The notes below the pieces were generated by a model. The model ran no database searches and was not told the DNA's origin. It saw only the letters and a program-made list of their open reading frames with translations. This document shows, in pieces, positions 5,110 to 59,420 of a stretch of DNA of 64,000 bases. How positions within the stretch are numbered: the stretch's first letter is position 1; each line of letters begins with the position of its first letter. The stretch spans positions 38,564,001-38,628,000 of the forward strand of contig OX597830.1 of the NCBI GenBank assembly GCA_951406725.2. The letters run 5' to 3'. The translations under genes and the position numbers were made by a program. This DNA is from Octopus vulgaris. Taxonomy: Eukaryota.

Positions 5110-5138
<29 letters not shown>

Positions 5139-5140
<2 letters not shown>

Positions 5141-5357
5141 GTACTTGTTTCAGTCATTTGACTGCGGCCATGCTGGAGCACCGCCTTTTAGAGTGGTGAA
5201 AGGGTACAGCAGGGATCACCACCTCCTGCCGGAGCCTCGTGGAGCTTTTAGGTGTTTTTCGCTCAATAAACACACACAACGCCCGGTCTGGGAATCGAAA
5301 CCGCGATCCTCCGACCGCAAGTCCGCTGCCCTAACCACTAGGCCATTGCGCCTCCAC
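5139..5357 (-). mobile_element. tRNA-derived SINE head joined to a second SINE-type 3' end with poly(A) tail
   Basis: Reverse complement GTGGAGGCGCAATGGCCTAGTGGTTAGGGCAGCGGACTTGCGGTCGGAGGATCGCGGTTTCGATTCCC. The 5140-5190 part matches 42715-42770. A poly(T) run lies at 5113-5140 on +. Confidence 0.75.
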
Positions 5358-5606
5358 TAGGCCTTGCTTATTATATGCAATAAATACGAATCAGAAGCTT
5401 TCTTTGTAAGGGGATTTAGGAAAATCATTTGCAACAGAGTAATATAAAGTCAGACACGCAATATCAAGTAGATGCTTGCATATTCTGTGAATTCGTAGTA
5501 GTAATACTGATCTTTTCATCAATTCCGTTCAATGATATGAAAATCATATATATATAATTTCCACCAAATTAGTTACTATGTTATGTATGTATATATATGT
5601 GTGTGT

Positions 5607-5650
<44 letters not shown>

Positions 5651-5656
<6 letters not shown>

Positions 5657-5865
5657 TCAATATAGGGTGGCAAAAAAAATTTTGTAGAATTCTTTTGCCA
5701 CCAGCGGCCTAGTAGGAAAAAATTAAATAGTCATAAACCATTTTTACGTTCAACATCACAATCAAGGAACGGCCATAATAGGCCATTCACCCACTAGAAA
5801 TAACAGCCAAAAGCTTTAACCGCAAAATAACATTAATTCCGTAAACCAGGAGAAAATTGAAAAAC
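5651..5865 (-). repeat. Inverted partial copy of the 491-bp unit
   Basis: Near-perfect reverse complement of 5886-6097; flanked on the left by (TA)n. Confidence 0.95.
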
Positions 5866-6254
5866 TAAGAAATTACAGGGTAACAGTTTTTCAATTTTCT
5901 CTTGGTTTACGGAATTAATGTTATTTTGCGGTTAAAGCTTTTGGCTGTTATTTCTAGTGGGTGAATGGCCTATTATGGCCGTTCCTTGATTGTGATGTTG
6001 AACGTAAAAATGGTTTATGACTATTTAATTTTTTCCTACTAGCGCTGGTGGCAAAAGAATTCTACAAAATTTTTTTGCCACCCTATATTGATTAATTATG
6101 AATTTTCTGGTTAGTTCCGTAATGGAATCGGTGGCTTATATTTATTTGCTGCCGATAAATTTGGCGCGAGTGCGACGATTTGAAAATTTTAGGTCAGATA
6201 TTGCCGAGGTAGCAAGAGGAATGCCTCGTGAAAAATATCTGTTCCGACTTGGCT

Positions 6255-6361
6255 ATTTCTTACTGATGAGTCTAAGGGCCTATGGTGGATTAGCTTGATT
6301 TAATTTAATCAGGTTAGTTTACCATTAAACGGTAGATGAAACGGTGCATCGTCTAAGAAAT
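6255..6361 (+). ncRNA. Type I hammerhead ribozyme, copy 1
   Basis: Helix I ATTTCTTA(6255-62)/TAAGAAAT(6354-61); core CTGATGA (6263-69); helix II GTCTA...TAGAT; GAAA (6338-41); helix III ACGGTGCATCGT; GUC triplet with cleavage predicted after C6353. Confidence 0.88.
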
Positions 6362-6745
6362 TACAGGGTAAAAGTTTTTCAATTTTCTCCTGGTTTACGG
6401 AATTAATGTTATTTTGCGGTTAAAGCATTTGGCTGTTATTTCTAGTAGGTGAATGGCCTATTATGGCCGTTCCTTGATTGTGATGTTGAACGTAAAAATG
6501 GTTTATGACTATTTAATTTTTTCCTACTAGGCCGCTGGTGGCAAAAGAATTCTACAAAATTTTTTTTGCCACCCTATATTGATTAATTATGAATTTTCTG
6601 GTTAGTTCCGTAATGGAATCGGTGGCTTATATTTATTTGCTGCCGATAAATTTGGCGCGAGTGCGACGATTTGAAAATTTTAGGTCAGATATTGCCGAGG
6701 TAGCAAGAGGAATGCCTCGTGAAAAATATCTGTTCCGACTTGGCT

Positions 6746-6852
6746 ATTTCTTACTGATGAGTCTAAGGGCCTATGGTGGATTAGCTTGATTTAATTTAAT
6801 CAGGTTAGTTTACCATTAAACGGTAGATGAAACGGTGCATCGTCTAAGAAAT
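6746..6852 (+). ncRNA. Type I hammerhead ribozyme, copy 2
   Basis: Same motif as copy 1; cleavage predicted after C6844. Confidence 0.88.
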
Positions 6853-7237
6853 TACAGGGTAAAAGTTTTTCAATTTTCTCCTGGTTTACGGAATTAATGT
6901 TATTTTGCGGTTAAAGCTTTTGGCTGTTATTTCTAGTGGGTGAATGGCCTATTATGGCCGTTCCTTGATTGTGATGTTGAACGTAAAAATGGTTTATGAC
7001 TATTTAATTTTTTCCTACTAGGCCGCTGGTGGCAAAAGAATTCTACAAAATTTTTTTTTGCCACCCTATATTGATTAATTATGAATTTTCTGGTTAGTTC
7101 CGTAATGGAATCGGTGGCTTATATTTATTTGCTGCCGATAAATTTGGCGCGAGTGCGACGATTTGAAAATTTTAGGTCAGATATTGCCGAGGTAGCAAGA
7201 GGAATGCCTCGTGAAAAATATCTGTTCCGACTTGGCT

Positions 7238-7344
7238 ATTTCTTACTGATGAGTCTAAGGGCCTATGGTGGATTAGCTTGATTTAATTTAATCAGGTTAG
7301 TTTACCATTAAACGGTAGATGAAACGGTGCATCGTCTAAGAAAT
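7238..7344 (+). ncRNA. Type I hammerhead ribozyme, copy 3
   Basis: Same motif; cleavage predicted after C7336. Confidence 0.88.
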
Positions 7345-7728
7345 TACAGGGTAAAAGTTTTTCAATTTTCTCCTGGTTTACGGAATTAATGTTATTTTGC
7401 GGTTAAAGCTTTTGGCTGTTATTTCTAGTGGGTGAATGGCCTATTATGGCCGTTCCTTGATTGTGATGTTGAACGTAAAAATGGTTTATGACTATTTAAT
7501 TTTTTCCTACTAGGCCGCTGGTGGCAAAAGAATTCTACAAAATTTTTTTTGCCACCCTATATTGATTAATTATGAATTTTCTGGTTAGTTCCGTAATGGA
7601 ATCGGTGGCTTATATTTATTTGCTGCCGATAAATTTGGCGCGAGTGCGACGATTTGAAAATTTTAGGTCAGATATTGCCGAGGTAGCAAGAGGAATGCCT
7701 CGTGAAAAATATCTGTTCCGACTTGGCT

Positions 7729-7835
7729 ATTTCTTACTGATGAGTCTAAGGGCCTATGGTGGATTAGCTTGATTTAATTTAATCAGGTTAGTTTACCATT
7801 AAACGGTAGATGAAACGGTGCATCGTCTAAGAAAT
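7729..7835 (+). ncRNA. Type I hammerhead ribozyme, copy 4
   Basis: Same motif; cleavage predicted after C7827. Confidence 0.88.
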
Positions 7836-8219
7836 TACAGGGTAACAGTTTTTCAATTTTCTCCTGGTTTACGGAATTAATGTTATTTTGCGGTTAAAAC
7901 TTTTGGCTGTTATTTCTAGTGGGTGAATGGCCTATTATGGCCGTTCCTTGATTGTGATGTTGAACGTAAAAATGGTTTATGACTATTTAATTTTTTCCTA
8001 CTAGGCCGCTGGTGGCAAAAGAATTCTACAAAATTTTTTTTGCCACCCTATATTGATTAATTATGAATTTTCTGGTTAGTTCCGTAATGGAATCGGTGGC
8101 TTATATTTATTTGCTGCCGATAAATTTGGCGCGAGTGCGACGATTTGAAAATTTTAGGTCAGATATTGCCGAGGTAGCAAGAGGAATGCCTCGTGAAAAA
8201 TATCTGTTCCGACTTGGCT

Positions 8220-8326
8220 ATTTCTTACTGATGAGTCTAAGGGCCTATGGTGGATTAGCTTGATTTAATTTAATCAGGTTAGTTTACCATTAAACGGTAG
8301 ATGAAACGGTGCATCGTCAAAGAAAT
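8220..8326 (+). ncRNA. Type I hammerhead ribozyme, copy 5 (first helix I pair mutated)
   Basis: Same core, but GTC is followed by AAAGAAAT (T>A at 8319), which breaks the pair next to the cleavage site. Confidence 0.8.
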
Positions 8327-8444
8327 TACAGGGTAAAAGTTTTTCAATTTTCTCCTGGTTTACGGAATTAATGTTATTTTGCGGTTAAAGCTTTTGGCTG
8401 TTATTTCTAGTGGGTGAATGGCCTATTATGGCCGTTCCTTGATT

Positions 8445-8529
<85 letters not shown>

Positions 8530-9141
8530 GTGTATGTATGTATGTATGAATGTATGTATGTATATTTGCTGAATTTTCTTGAGAACATTTCTTCGTGGTA
8601 AGACCATAGCGAATCTACTTCTAGCATAAGGGTTGTCGACATAGTGGTCATCCCTCTCATATGTATGTAATATGTATATATGACTGTATGTTTACATATG
8701 TATAAACATATACATACACACATACAAACACACGCATACGCACACGCACATACACATATACGTGTATGTATATATATGTTTGTGTGTGATCGTGCCCGCG
8801 TATAAGTGACTATAGTTTGTTAAAAAAAAGAATAGAAGGATCAGTGGGAAGAACATGACAGACAATATGTCAAATCCTGTGTGGTAATTTGCAAGGCACT
8901 AAATGAGAAGAGACTATTTATGAAAAAACAACTGTTCTCTGAAATTATCTTAATATTGATAAAAAGACTGTCAATTCCTGGAGCCAAAGCTATGCACGTG
9001 TGTTTCTGCTTCAATTGAAACCCACCATCGTCAGAGTCAGTTTCATACTTTATCTCTGGCCAAGTGGATAATTATACACTTATAAACGGCTAGAATATAT
9101 TTACACGGATACTTTCTTCCCTGATCGTCTATCTCTACGAT

Positions 9142-34499: not shown

Positions 34500-35729
34500 C
34501 TACCGTACCATCACCCTGATCCCCCATGTAAGTAACATTCTCCTTAAAATCATCCAGAAGCGCCTGAACACAACTATTGAGAGAGAATTGCCAGAGGTGC
34601 AAGCTGGCTTCAGAAAGGGAAGGGGCACCCGCGATCACATCGCCAACCTACGGTGGATTATGGCAAAGGCAAGAGAATACCAAAAGAAGCTGTACATGTG
34701 TTTCATCAATTACTCCAAAGCCTTTGACAGCATTGATCATGACAAGTTATAGAAATGTCTGGAGGAAATGGGAGCACCTTTACATCTTGTCCAGCTTATT
34801 AGATCACTCTATCAAAATCAAGAGTACGGACACCATATGGCGAAACTGATTGGTTGCATCCTGTCACCAGAAGCCTTCAATATGTACGCTGAAAAGGCCA
34901 TGAGGAATGCAGGCCTGGAGGATAGCAGCATTGGAGTGAGGATTGGAGGAAGAAATATTAATAACCTTCGCTATGCAGATGATACAACCCTGCTGGCGGA
35001 GAGTGGTAAGAATCTGGAGGATCTTGTCCTGCTCGTCAAGAAAGAGAGTGAGAAATTTGGGCTGTACCTTAATGTTAAGAAAACGAAGATCATGCCCACA
35101 GCAGCCACAACAAACATCAACATCAAGATCGAAGTGGTTGATGATTTCATCTTCCTTGGCTCCAAAATAAATCGAGATGGTGACTGCACTCCAGAAATAA
35201 GACAGCGGATAGTACTAGGCAGAGAGGCAATGGCCAGCATGAGCAGGGTCTGGAAGAGTAGAGACATCAGACGCGCTACCAAATGCAGATTGGTGAATGC
35301 AATTGTCTTCCCAATAGCAACATATGGATGCGAGACCTGGACACTAAAGAAAGCTGACCAGAAGAGAATTAATTCATTCGAGCTTTGGTGTTGGAGAAGG
35401 CATTTACGGATTCTATGGACAGCGAGGCTCACCAATGGAGAAGTTCTTGAGCAGGTCATGCCGAAAATGTCGCTAGAAGCTAGGATCACTAAGCATAGAT
35501 CGGCATATCTTGGTCATATTATGCGGAGAAAATCCCTGGGGAAGGACATCATGCTCGGAATGGTCAGTGGCAAGTGACGAAGAGGCTGACCAAGAACCTG
35601 CTGTCTTGACACCATCAGGACTGATACCGGAATCGACATAGCCAATCTGAAAGAAGCGGCCCAGGATAGAACTGACTGGAGGACACTGATCCATATCGAG
35701 TAACCGAGAGTCGACTTCGACTGAGCGGA
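34500..35729 (+). mobile_element. 5'-truncated RTE-clade (BovB-like) LINE, RT and C-terminus, disrupted
   Basis: YRTITLIPH, QAGFRKGRGTRDHI, INYSKAFDSI, GCILSP, NNLRYADDT, FIFLGS, YGCETW, FELWCWRR and YLGHIMR; stop at 34750 plus deletions; ends in (TA)n. Confidence 0.95.
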
Positions 35730-56506: not shown

Positions 56507-58979
56507 AAGTTAGTTAGTTAGTTAGTTAGTTAGTTAATTTGGCTCAAAAGCAAATAGCAAGGCCATGTAGGGGGACATGGAGTTAAGTACAGGGTGGTGT
56601 TCATGTAAAGAGTTCAGGCCACTTGAGGTCCAGGGAGGCTTTGAACAAAGCGGTCGTCGGCATCTTCACCATCTCGTCTGGCAGCTTGTTCCACGGATCC
56701 GCAACCCGGACGGAGAAAGCTCCTCTCCTTCGATTGAGATGAAATCGTCGCAGGTAGAGCTTTTCGGAATGACCCCACAGCCGACGCTCCGGAGCAGGAG
56801 TGAAGAACAGCTCTTTCGAGAGGTTACACTTCCCGCTTATGATGTTGTGGGCGAGAATGAGATCACCACGGCGGCGGCGTTTTTCAAGAGAATAAAGGTC
56901 GAGCGTCCTCAGCCTTTCTTCGTAGGACAAATTTTTGAGACCATGAACCATGCGGGTAGCCAGCCTCTGGACTCTTTCGAGGTGCTGTATGTCTTTGAGG
57001 AGATAAGGAGAAGAGGCTTGAATCCCATATTCCAATATGGGTCTCACCAGCGTGACATAGAATGGCAGGAATATGGCTGCTGTGAGCATTCCGTATGACC
57101 GTCGAATCAAAAACAGAATTCCGCGCGCTTTGTTGGCAGCATGGACGCACTGGGCCGAAGGCGAAAAGGAGGAATCCACCAAGATACCCAGGTCCTTTAC
57201 CTGATCGGTCCTCTCCAGCAGCAGACGACCCGGCTCGAAATCAAGTTGAGTTGCAGGAGTAGAGCCGACAGGCAGATGACAGCACTTTGACACGTTCAGA
57301 CACAGGTCCCAATCGTTAGACCACTTCCAAATTTGGTGGAGGCATCGACGAAGATCCTCTATACTACCGCGAGGAGCGACCAGTTTGATATCGTCGGCAA
57401 ATAGAAGGGTGTGTTGCGTGAGGTCGTCGGGCAAGTCATTTATGAAGACTAAGAACAACAAGGGCCCAAGCACTGAACCTTGAGGCACGCCACTGCTCGC
57501 ACTGGAGACGTCGGACCGCGAACCATTAACTTGAACTTGGAAGGAGCGATCTGAGAGGAAGGCACCAACCCATCGTACAATATCCGGATGGAAACTATAT
57601 GCTTGAAGCTTGACAAGTAGTAGGCGATGGTTTACCGAGTCAAAAGCTTTGGCAAAGTCCAATAAAACGATGTCAACAGCATCATTATCATCGAGGATGC
57701 GCGTCACCAATTCTTCCATTACTAGTAAGTTGGTCAAGCATGATCTCTTCGGCACGAAGCCGTGTTGGGAATCAGTGATCGAGGCTGTGTTTAGGAGGTG
57801 GAGCATCATACTTTTCTTAAGGATGGTTTCGAACATCTTGCTGATTATTGATGTAAGGGAAACCGGTCGGTAGTTAAGCGGGTCTTCGCGGCTCCCTTTC
57901 TTGAAAATTGGGCAGATTATCGCTGTTCTCCAGTCTGAAGGTATAACACCCGTCGCCAATGACATATTGAATAGTCGTGTTAAGGGCTCGCAGATGACCG
58001 GAGCCAACGCTTTGATAACCCGTGGGTGTATGCCGTCAGGGCTGTGACCCTTGTTGACATCGAGGCCTTGAATAACACGTTTGACTTGGTCCCGCGTGAT
58101 GATCAATCGAAGCATTGGAGGTACCGATCTATCAAATGGAGGGGGTTCACGACCATCATCTTGTTTGAAAATAGTTGAAAAAGCCTCGGCAAATAATTGA
58201 CTCTGTTGATAAGGGTCCTCAATCGATACGCCTGTTGAGTCTACCAACGTTGCAATCTGGTTGTTCAAGCGGGAATTCCGCTGGACATGGGCAAAGAAGG
58301 TTTTTGGATCGCTACTGGCATTTGCCGCGATTTTGTATTCATAACTGAAGCGTTCTTTCTTTTCAATTTTCACGGCTCGGTCTCGTTGAGTTTTGTACAC
58401 CTCAAAAGCTGCAGTCGAATCCAGATTTTTGAATTCAGCCCAAGCAATATCTCTGAGTCGACGTTCTCGTTTAACCTTCTTCGTCACCCAGGGCTTGTGT
58501 TTCTTCCTCTTGGGAAGTCCAACGGGAACTGCCTGGTCAGTCAAACAGATTACATATGCTTTGAGGGATGACCATAGTTCGTGAACTGAGGACAACGTCA
58601 TCAGGGAACGCCAGTCCAGAAGCACGGAAGCCTCGGTTAGAATTTCAAGATTAATTGCAGAGAAGACACTACGTGGCAGCGAAGTAATCGTGGGCGTGGA
58701 AAAAGTTGTGTGCATGACGAACTTCAGGACCGCATGATCACTCTTGGCAAGAGGGGCGCACACAGATACGTCTGACACTGATCTTGGATAGCGGGAGAAT
58801 ACCAGATCTAGCATAGATGGCTGCTGCCCAGACCGATGCCTTGTCGGATATTCAACATGTTGCGAGAGAAAACAATCTTCAGCCACGTCAAGAAGGGCCT
58901 GGCCGAACCGGGAAGATGTTGTACAAATTGATGCGGGCCAATCGATCGTGGGAGCGTTGAAGTCGCCTAGTACCAGTAA
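56507..58979 (-). mobile_element. 5'-truncated CR1-group LINE with (TAAC)n tail
   Basis: (AGTT)n at 56507-56536 on +, a short 3' UTR and an uninterrupted ORF2; visibly more GC-rich than the flanks; splits a SINE (halves at 56460-56506 and 59095-59176). Confidence 0.95.
56601..58979 (-). CDS. LINE ORF2 fragment: C-terminal part of the AP endonuclease plus complete reverse transcriptase (~790 aa, no native start)
   Basis: LVLGDFN, LDLVFS, SDH (APE); YRPVSLTS, QHGF, LDFAKAFDSV, GVPQGSVLGPLLF, LFADD, KDLGI, RRRRGDLI (CR1-type RT and C-terminus). The first ~25 aa of the 816-aa track ORF come from flanking DNA. Confidence 0.92.
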   Translation of the reverse strand, partial: LLVLGDFNAPTIDWPASICTTSSRFGQALLDVAEDCFLSQHVEYPTRHRSGQQPSMLDLVFSRYPRSVSDVSVCAPLAKSDHAVLKFVMHTTFSTPTITSLPRSVFSAINLEILTEASVLLDWRSLMTLSSVHELWSSLKAYVICLTDQAVPVGLPKRKKHKPWVTKKVKRERRLRDIAWAEFKNLDSTAAFEVYKTQRDRAVKIEKKERFSYEYKIAANASSDPKTFFAHVQRNSRLNNQIATLVDSTGVSIEDPYQQSQLFAEAFSTIFKQDDGREPPPFDRSVPPMLRLIITRDQVKRVIQGLDVNKGHSPDGIHPRVIKALAPVICEPLTRLFNMSLATGVIPSDWRTAIICPIFKKGSREDPLNYRPVSLTSIISKMFETILKKSMMLHLLNTASITDSQHGFVPKRSCLTNLLVMEELVTRILDDNDAVDIVLLDFAKAFDSVNHRLLLVKLQAYSFHPDIVRWVGAFLSDRSFQVQVNGSRSDVSSASSGVPQGSVLGPLLFLVFINDLPDDLTQHTLLFADDIKLVAPRGSIEDLRRCLHQIWKWSNDWDLCLNVSKCCHLPVGSTPATQLDFEPGRLLLERTDQVKDLGILVDSSFSPSAQCVHAANKARGILFLIRRSYGMLTAAIFLPFYVTLVRPILEYGIQASSPYLLKDIQHLERVQRLATRMVHGLKNLSYEERLRTLDLYSLEKRRRRGDLILAHNIISGKCNLSKELFFTPAPERRLWGHSEKLYLRRFHLNRRRGAFSVRVADPWNKLPDEMVKMPTTALFKASLDLKWPELFT

Positions 58980-59420
58980 TGTATATGTGTGCGTGCGTGC
59001 GCGTGCATGTGTGAAATTGTGAGAAAGTGATTGGAAAATGCAGTGTGACAAAGTAAAGAAGAGGAAAAAGCAGCCAGAAGAGGCCTAGTAATGTCGAGCT
59101 CAGAACGTAGAGACGGTCAAAATTCCGCTACGCATTTCCTCTGGCCTGCTACCGTTTCTGCCAACTCACCGCCTTTGTATGAAGAAAGGATTAAAACCAA
59201 CAGTATTGCCTTTCTGAAATTTGAAATGATCATATATCACCATCTGAAGTTGAAGATAAGGACAATATATTCTACAATTTAAATAGAAATCTAAGTATTA
59301 CAGAATATACACATGGCCTCTTCTGTCTGCGTTTTCCTCTTCTTTACTTTGTCACACTGCATTTTCCAATCACTTTCTCACAATTTCACACATGCACGCG
59401 CACGCACGCACACATGTACA
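58980..59420. repeat. 106-bp inverted duplication at the LINE 5' junction
   Basis: 58980-59085 is the reverse complement of 59315-59420 with 3 mismatches by eye. Confidence 0.92.

Follow-up and report, generated by a model that had tools for sequence, protein, structure and literature searches.

Two-armed insertions of a hammerhead retrozyme in Octopus vulgaris: paired fixed ends, a minor peak at the ribozyme cut site and a likely Penelope-type route of integration

Known retrozymes, Penelope-like elements and the octopus locus

Animal retrozymes of the kind without long terminal repeats (non-LTR) have been described by Cervera and de la Pena (2020; PMC7229834) and by Li, Clavereau and Pollet (bioRxiv 10.64898/2026.07.22.740005). 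The retrozyme considered here lies in a 64,000-nt stretch of the Octopus vulgaris genome (the window; assembly GCA_951406725.2, contig OX597830.1, positions 38,564,001 to 38,628,000) and shares with those elements tandem non-coding units that each carry a type I hammerhead ribozyme, a low GC content, dispersed copies and a proposed mobilisation by Penelope-like elements (PLEs). Its 491-nt unit is longer than the 170-400 nt of PMC7229834 and falls within the 51-972 bp of the bioRxiv study, in which the link to PLEs was argued from homology of the pseudo-LTR (pLTR) and from co-occurrence, and arrays were explained by local amplification. The available text of both is silent on inserts with two inverted arms, on pairs of fixed ends and on 5' ends that coincide with the cut.

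On the side of the PLEs, the origin of tandem and inverted inserts and of one-ended tails has been called open (Craig et al. 2021, PMC8557442) and was partly answered in vitro (PMC11167929). Already on record are retrozymes as such and the proposal that PLEs move them, as well as inverted copies of PLEs, tails that often stand at a single end, and a pair of internal reverse transcriptase (RT) starts. Endonuclease-bearing (EN+) PLEs of the Neptune/Nematis type have a tail of 30-40 nt (PMC8557442, PMC3846280), whereas the octopus retrozyme has one of 106 nt and no open reading frame, and the rule that the tail stands at one end, which holds 'often' in published PLEs, is strict in the retrozyme. 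The Poseidon element PAc of Anolis, studied in vitro (Frangieh et al. 2024, PMC11167929), is a further likeness: its enzyme is a predicted dimer, both target strands are cut and extended, two internal RT start sites bound the tail and the target is AT-rich. Hammerhead cleavage was not required in that system. According to the same source the two strands did not differ visibly in start site, and none of the RNA-seq reads had an end at the hammerhead cut. In the octopus, by contrast, the two sites are always paired, and a minor peak at the cut is visible among the DNA copies.

Two arms with fixed, paired outer ends

The insert in the window consists of two arms. On the forward strand, arm B (5866-8449) is a 491-bp tandem array of five full units of 488-492 bp, starting at 5866, 6354, 6845, 7337 and 7828, followed by unit positions 1-131 (8319-8449); the units are 98.6-100% identical. 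Arm A (5649-5866, reverse strand) stands head to head with it and corresponds to unit positions 20-237 (BLAST, 99%). Both sides are flanked by (TA)n tracts, the left part of the target lying at 5582-5650 (seen as a tandem repeat at 5582-5651 and in the sequence) and the right part, of (TA)n/(TATG)n type, at 8449-8563. The outer end of arm A is joined to (TA)n at unit position 237, as in 62 of the 127 unselected arms with a readable outer end, and that of arm B at position 131, as in 57 of the 127. Because both are fixed ends of the family, neither the end of the inverted copy nor that of the partial last unit is arbitrary. An earlier note, made from the sequence alone, had reported an inverted copy directly 5' of the array; the copy is real, but it measures 218 bp and is better described as a second, separately primed arm that ends at a fixed site. 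The same note had taken the partial last unit as a clue to a rolling circle or a multimer, on which it says nothing, since position 131 marks an RT start site.

Between the two fixed sites lies the tail of 106 nt (unit 132-237; in the window 5649-5754, reverse strand), found at one end only of each two-armed insertion and a counterpart of the 30-nt tail of the autonomous PLE described below. No stop-free stretch of at least 130 aa is listed within the array (low-complexity frames having been filtered), and the insert, being non-coding and without an RT and GIY-YIG frame of its own, is not an autonomous PLE. It does contain an inverted, 5'-truncated copy beside a direct tandem, the arrangement taken as a sign of PLE mobilisation. 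Arm A carries the majority letters of the array and lacks the three private changes of unit 1 that fall in its range (T37, a 2-nt deletion at 178-179 and a shortened run of T); it therefore did not arise by folding back of unit 1 in its assembled form. Units 1 and 5, four units apart, have A19C in common (window 5884 and 7846), a change found at no other locus read.

The same architecture recurs across the genome. The 491-bp unit has 1043 candidate places in 2.8 Gb, with 237 matches among the 40 scored, and the full-length units among the matches listed are 95-100% alike, as expected of dispersed, recently mobile copies. Most of the 39 other loci read have two divergent arms with outer ends fixed at 131 and 237, counted in nt from the ribozyme cut, each running into (TA)n. 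Patterns for the two end junctions gave 692 and 508 forward-strand matches, or roughly 2400 arms (reverse-strand counts are multiply counted and not usable). In a positional sample of 77 loci on contig C1 up to 120 Mb, the first 20 read and the others taken from coordinates, all 28 close end pairs were 131/237 and 50 ends were unpaired. The loci read comprise 91 inserts with two arms, of which 75 have the ends 131/237 and none has 131/131, two apparent 237/237 calls being artefacts; (TA)n stood at both ends in 74 of the 75, and in seven loci with an interrupted target a duplication of 13-15 nt surrounds the whole insert. No rate is derived for these duplications, as the available denominator of 53 is swollen by end letters that belong to the element itself. 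This strict pairing is a stronger result than the start at the cut site. Together with the one-ended tail and an autonomous PLE of the same genome that follows the same rule, it bears out the proposal of Penelope-type integration. The literature searched, in which few subscription papers were covered and Fig. S2 of PMC11167929 may bear on the pairing, yielded no report of strictly paired sites or of PLE-type two-armed retrozyme inserts.

Older subfamilies (loci L071-L100 and L184-L213; about 90-95% alike), in which the cut follows GUA and helix II is closed by A-U or other pairs, keep the same ends at 131 and 237. An array of about 18 units on contig C10 near 17.48 Mb (L059/L060) has recurring blocks of variants, which suggests local duplication or a mixed multimer template.

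The ribozyme and the inner ends

The five hammerheads of the array, all on the forward strand and recognised from sequence and motif analysis, lie at 6257-6359 (cut after 6353), 6748-6850 (core CUGAUGA at 6754-6760, GUC cut after 6844), 7240-7342 (cut after 7336), 7731-7833 (cut after 7827) and 8222-8324, the last with an A for U directly after the cut that breaks the first pair of helix I. In each, helix I (UUCUUA/UAAGAA) is followed by CUGAUGA, by a helix II of five pairs that holds a long hairpin insert, by GAAA, by a palindromic helix III and by GUC; the short helix III can pair between two units (computed at -18.1 kcal/mol). An Rfam scan gave no match at the gathering score, and the assignment as hammerhead is based on core motifs and covariation. 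The core is invariant in all 20 aligned common variants from other loci, with N7 and H17 varying among the permitted letters, and compensatory changes occur in helices I and II (3 pairs, 9 cells), with covariation above that of 500 of 500 shuffles, the sequences being related. Conserved core, covariation and the peak described below are hints that the transcript would cleave itself, and the pattern of the copies hints that it may do so in living cells.

The arms meet at 5865-5866, at the ribozyme cut site of arm B, with a 2-nt overlap (CT) that leaves the array starting at unit -1, +1 or +2. The claim that the array begins at the cut site is thus upheld within 2 nt, the first unit lacking an upstream hammerhead; the ambiguity that had been assigned to the preceding C alone extends to both C5865 and T5866. 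The internal junction described for the array, CATCGTC followed by TAAGAAATTACAGGG, is found at four of the five, and the last, at 8319, reads CATCGTC followed by AAAGAAA. Taken alone, the window locus proves nothing about starts at the cut, because some 98% of arms start elsewhere and it is a rare case.

Across unselected loci, the 129 distinct inner ends are flat over the unit (12 bins), and 2 of 130 arms, both from one locus, start at the cut after correction of one palindrome. Automated end calls misplaced palindromic junctions (484 for +1), and these were set right by eye. A genome-wide pattern search for units that start at the cut returned 61 matches; 60 of them were read, and the remaining one mirrors a palindrome already included. 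True starts number 40 arms in 35 loci (3/4, 19/34, 15/19 and 3/4 of the matches), the other matches being point changes or small deletions. Set against 2662 intact junctions, this is 1.5% per pass, with about 98.5% of passes reading through. At control position 78 there were 4 starts among 17 matches (4225 read-throughs), and at position 445, an AT-rich hairpin loop for which the pattern misses matches with C 14 nt upstream, 5 starts among 11; position 476 was discarded as swamped by a GAC variant (220 matches, 30 read, one true start). In a matched test using two of the three possible bases, 15 arms started at the cut against 4 and 5 at the controls (p=0.003; 0.012 by locus). In five loci (L126/L127, L131/L132, L134, L138/L139 and L147/L148) the insert is a palindrome with the cut at its centre, its halves meeting flush or sharing a TA. 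Among the 28 two-armed loci with a cut-site arm, 19 have a second arm that ends between -20 and +40 relative to the cut, as against 17 of 60 close pairs elsewhere (p=0.0009).

This crowding of both arms fits a shared RNA 5' end; TA microhomology or a pause of the RT is possible as well. At locus L137 the cut site is joined directly to the preceding unit near its position 472, which is what a template jump at an RNA 5' end would give. The earlier proposal of 5' ends made by self-cleavage therefore stands as a real excess and fails as the rule of the family, and the 5' boundaries of other copies show a small peak at the cut and are random in about 98% of arms, random boundaries being the outcome that the earlier note had named as a refutation. 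Genomic 5' ends at a hammerhead cut have no earlier report in the literature searched, with the same thin coverage of subscription papers.

How the two arms may arise

The arms of one insert differ at 1.7 sites and those of different inserts at 5.7, a difference as low in none of 20000 permutations (61 loci); the shared variants therefore point to one RNA or one source locus for both arms. We consider it likely that the element is a non-autonomous non-LTR retrozyme (491-nt unit), a class assigned from tandem hammerhead units, with no search aimed at LTRs or a primer-binding site, and that it was inserted by the RT/GIY-YIG protein of a PLE through double target-primed reverse transcription. The PLE enzyme, probably as a dimer, would nick both target strands about 14 nt apart, and one 3' OH would prime at site 131 and the other at site 237, on the same RNA or on RNAs from one source locus. 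Each cDNA would extend until it falls off, and the 3' ends of the two cDNAs would then be linked head to head, in many cases through a few bases that they have in common. Most templates would be continuous across the cut site, as a circle or an uncut multimer; in a minority the 5' end may have been made by the ribozyme, and one cDNA or both would stop there. The window locus is somewhat more probably than otherwise such a stop. Two separate primings at two fixed sites fit the shared variants, the pairs in which neither arm contains the other and the scarcity of abutting arms. Read-through could come from a circle, an uncut multimer or end-to-end jumping, and the unit variants do not decide between them.

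A broader proposal, on which the evidence seems to us evenly poised, is that PLE integration is an obligately asymmetric double priming, in which each of two subunits serves one target strand and starts from a fixed RNA site of its own, and that this alone makes both the inverted arms and the one-ended tail. The retrozyme would use it in trans with a spacing of 106 nt, and its copies would record ribozyme-made 5' ends from the germline, including perfect palindromes at the cut.

Suitable machinery is encoded in the same genome. A GIY-YIG frame found in the flanks of two retrozyme loci (L066, 1-1521; L047, 1-1306) belongs to a young, abundant PLE with 138 scored matches at 99-100% identity, many with a frame of 775 aa. 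One copy (L278:61-4331, on contig C3 near 5.86 Mb) has a 4270-bp unit in which two further open stretches (223 and 266 aa, without family) precede the 775-aa frame; the latter joins an RT, scoring just under the Pfam cut-off, to a C-terminal GIY-YIG domain. It has a CX4CXXC linker, which is given for Neptune and Nematis (PMC8557442), and the family is of Neptune/Nematis type. Its repeat carries a minimal hammerhead (CCGAAGA replacing CUGANGA) 139 nt before the short end and a 30-nt AC-rich tail, and in each of the 15 two-armed inserts chosen from its match list the two ends, both in (TA)n, are of different kinds. The machinery is thus present and of similar age, which does not show this family to be the retrozyme's partner. 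The unique 5' flanks of 22 single retrozyme arms have no longer element in common among the matches listed. A second PLE family with a C-terminal GIY-YIG domain adjoins retrozyme inserts (L068:1-609, L114:783-1253).

Several observations weigh against double priming by PLE machinery with occasional stops at a cleaved end. At the hammerhead cut of the PLE itself there is no peak (3 clear starts versus 2), and no DNA similarity was found between the retrozyme and the one full PLE family compared, pLTR included; nor do the tails agree in length (106 and 30 nt). In 14 of the 91 pairs one end falls outside both classes; a gap or alignments extended too far account for some of these. Few lineages stand behind the covariation count, a single change in helix II being common to 7 sequences, and the free-energy fold of the monomer does not form the active core. 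The 2 of 130 unselected arms at the cut are weak alone (p=0.03 by arm, 0.23 by locus), 5 of the 40 genome-wide starts are joins to (TA)n of ambiguous register and a further 2 (L108, L144) are open to doubt, the TA with which the cut site begins favours joins to (TA)n and to itself, and two control positions only were usable.

Among other explanations, a start at the cut as the general rule, with the 5' inversion incidental, is very improbable: the window locus agrees within 2 nt and the cut shows a genome-wide excess, but 128 of 130 unselected arms start elsewhere, intact junctions far outnumber starts and the inverted part has a fixed end of its own. As a rule it is refuted, and it holds for a minority of about 1.5% of passes. 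It is possible, if doubtful, that two-site priming is right and that the peak has its cause in sequence or structure rather than in a cleaved 5' end, be it TA microhomology or an RT that pauses at helix I or over the scar left when a circle is ligated. The cut site starts with TAAG, the 40 starts include joins to (TA)n as well as TTAA palindromes, and five other positions hold 3 of 129 arms each. The AT-rich hairpin loop at 445 nevertheless yields 5 starts only, a ligation scar would itself need prior cleavage, and both arms crowd to the same limit in single-unit inserts, for which a shared RNA end is the simplest explanation.

The two arms could also come from a single cDNA that folds back and primes itself, a route put forward for Penelope palindromes; the endonuclease would then resolve the copy at the other fixed site. 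Palindromic junctions were interpreted in this way in PMC3846280 (Arkhipova et al. 2013), where inversions are ascribed to self-priming; the window locus is geometrically compatible (a 19-nt loop), and inner ends coincide more often than expected (9 of 61 within 5 nt). A third of the retrozyme pairs cannot fit, since neither arm contains the other in 25 of 75, and in unselected loci such pairs (18 of 51) are as frequent as independent arms would give (15, range 10-21). In locus L246, moreover, the units of one arm have three common variants absent from the other. As a general route fold-back is refuted by the 25 impossible pairs and is unlikely overall, and it may act in a subset. In L1 twin priming, two primers come from the two target strands and leave an inverted 5' part and microhomology at the junction. 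The classical form, in which the second primer lands upstream on the RNA and the arms abut without overlap, would account for the inverted 5' segment and the short junction overlaps; its second start is random, whereas the second start of the retrozyme is a fixed site and the arms copy overlapping sequence. Only 2 and 4 of 51 pairs have an arm whose inner end meets its partner's start, and the overlap of the arms refutes this route, which we regard as scarcely credible. Just as little credence is due to a library fold-back chimera, an assembly error or a satellite grown locally by unequal crossover. No single record of four sequencing runs spans the window locus, and the recurrent unit variants of L059 suggest some local shuffling, but dozens of loci have fixed unlike ends, (TA)n on two sides and target duplications, the inverted arm lacks the private changes of unit 1, and the junction of 131 with (AT)n also occurs in contigs of three other runs. 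The chimera that the earlier note had named as a possible refutation is thereby set aside.

The feature is real, and the non-LTR retrozyme works like a passenger of PLEs, a cleaved 5' end being right for a small minority of copies, probably including the window locus. Over a thousand short, young inserts put numbers on this mode of integration, with strict two-site pairing, a stagger of about 14 nt, independent arm lengths and no general self-priming. They give junction-level evidence that PLE machinery moves retrozymes, a link drawn in earlier studies from co-occurrence and homology, and they preserve in DNA the stops at a ribozyme cut in about 1.5% of passes. With an active-looking PLE frame and defined RNA sites, the model is directly testable.

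Elsewhere in the window, a run of 28 T followed by a short repeat (5113-5360) is a candidate for a sequence like a short interspersed element, and the start of this repeat recurs in the flanks of other loci. A copy of a long interspersed element (LINE) at 56604-59084 (reverse strand) has an 827-aa open frame with endonuclease and RT domains, and an RT fragment of another LINE lies at 34753-35574 (forward strand).
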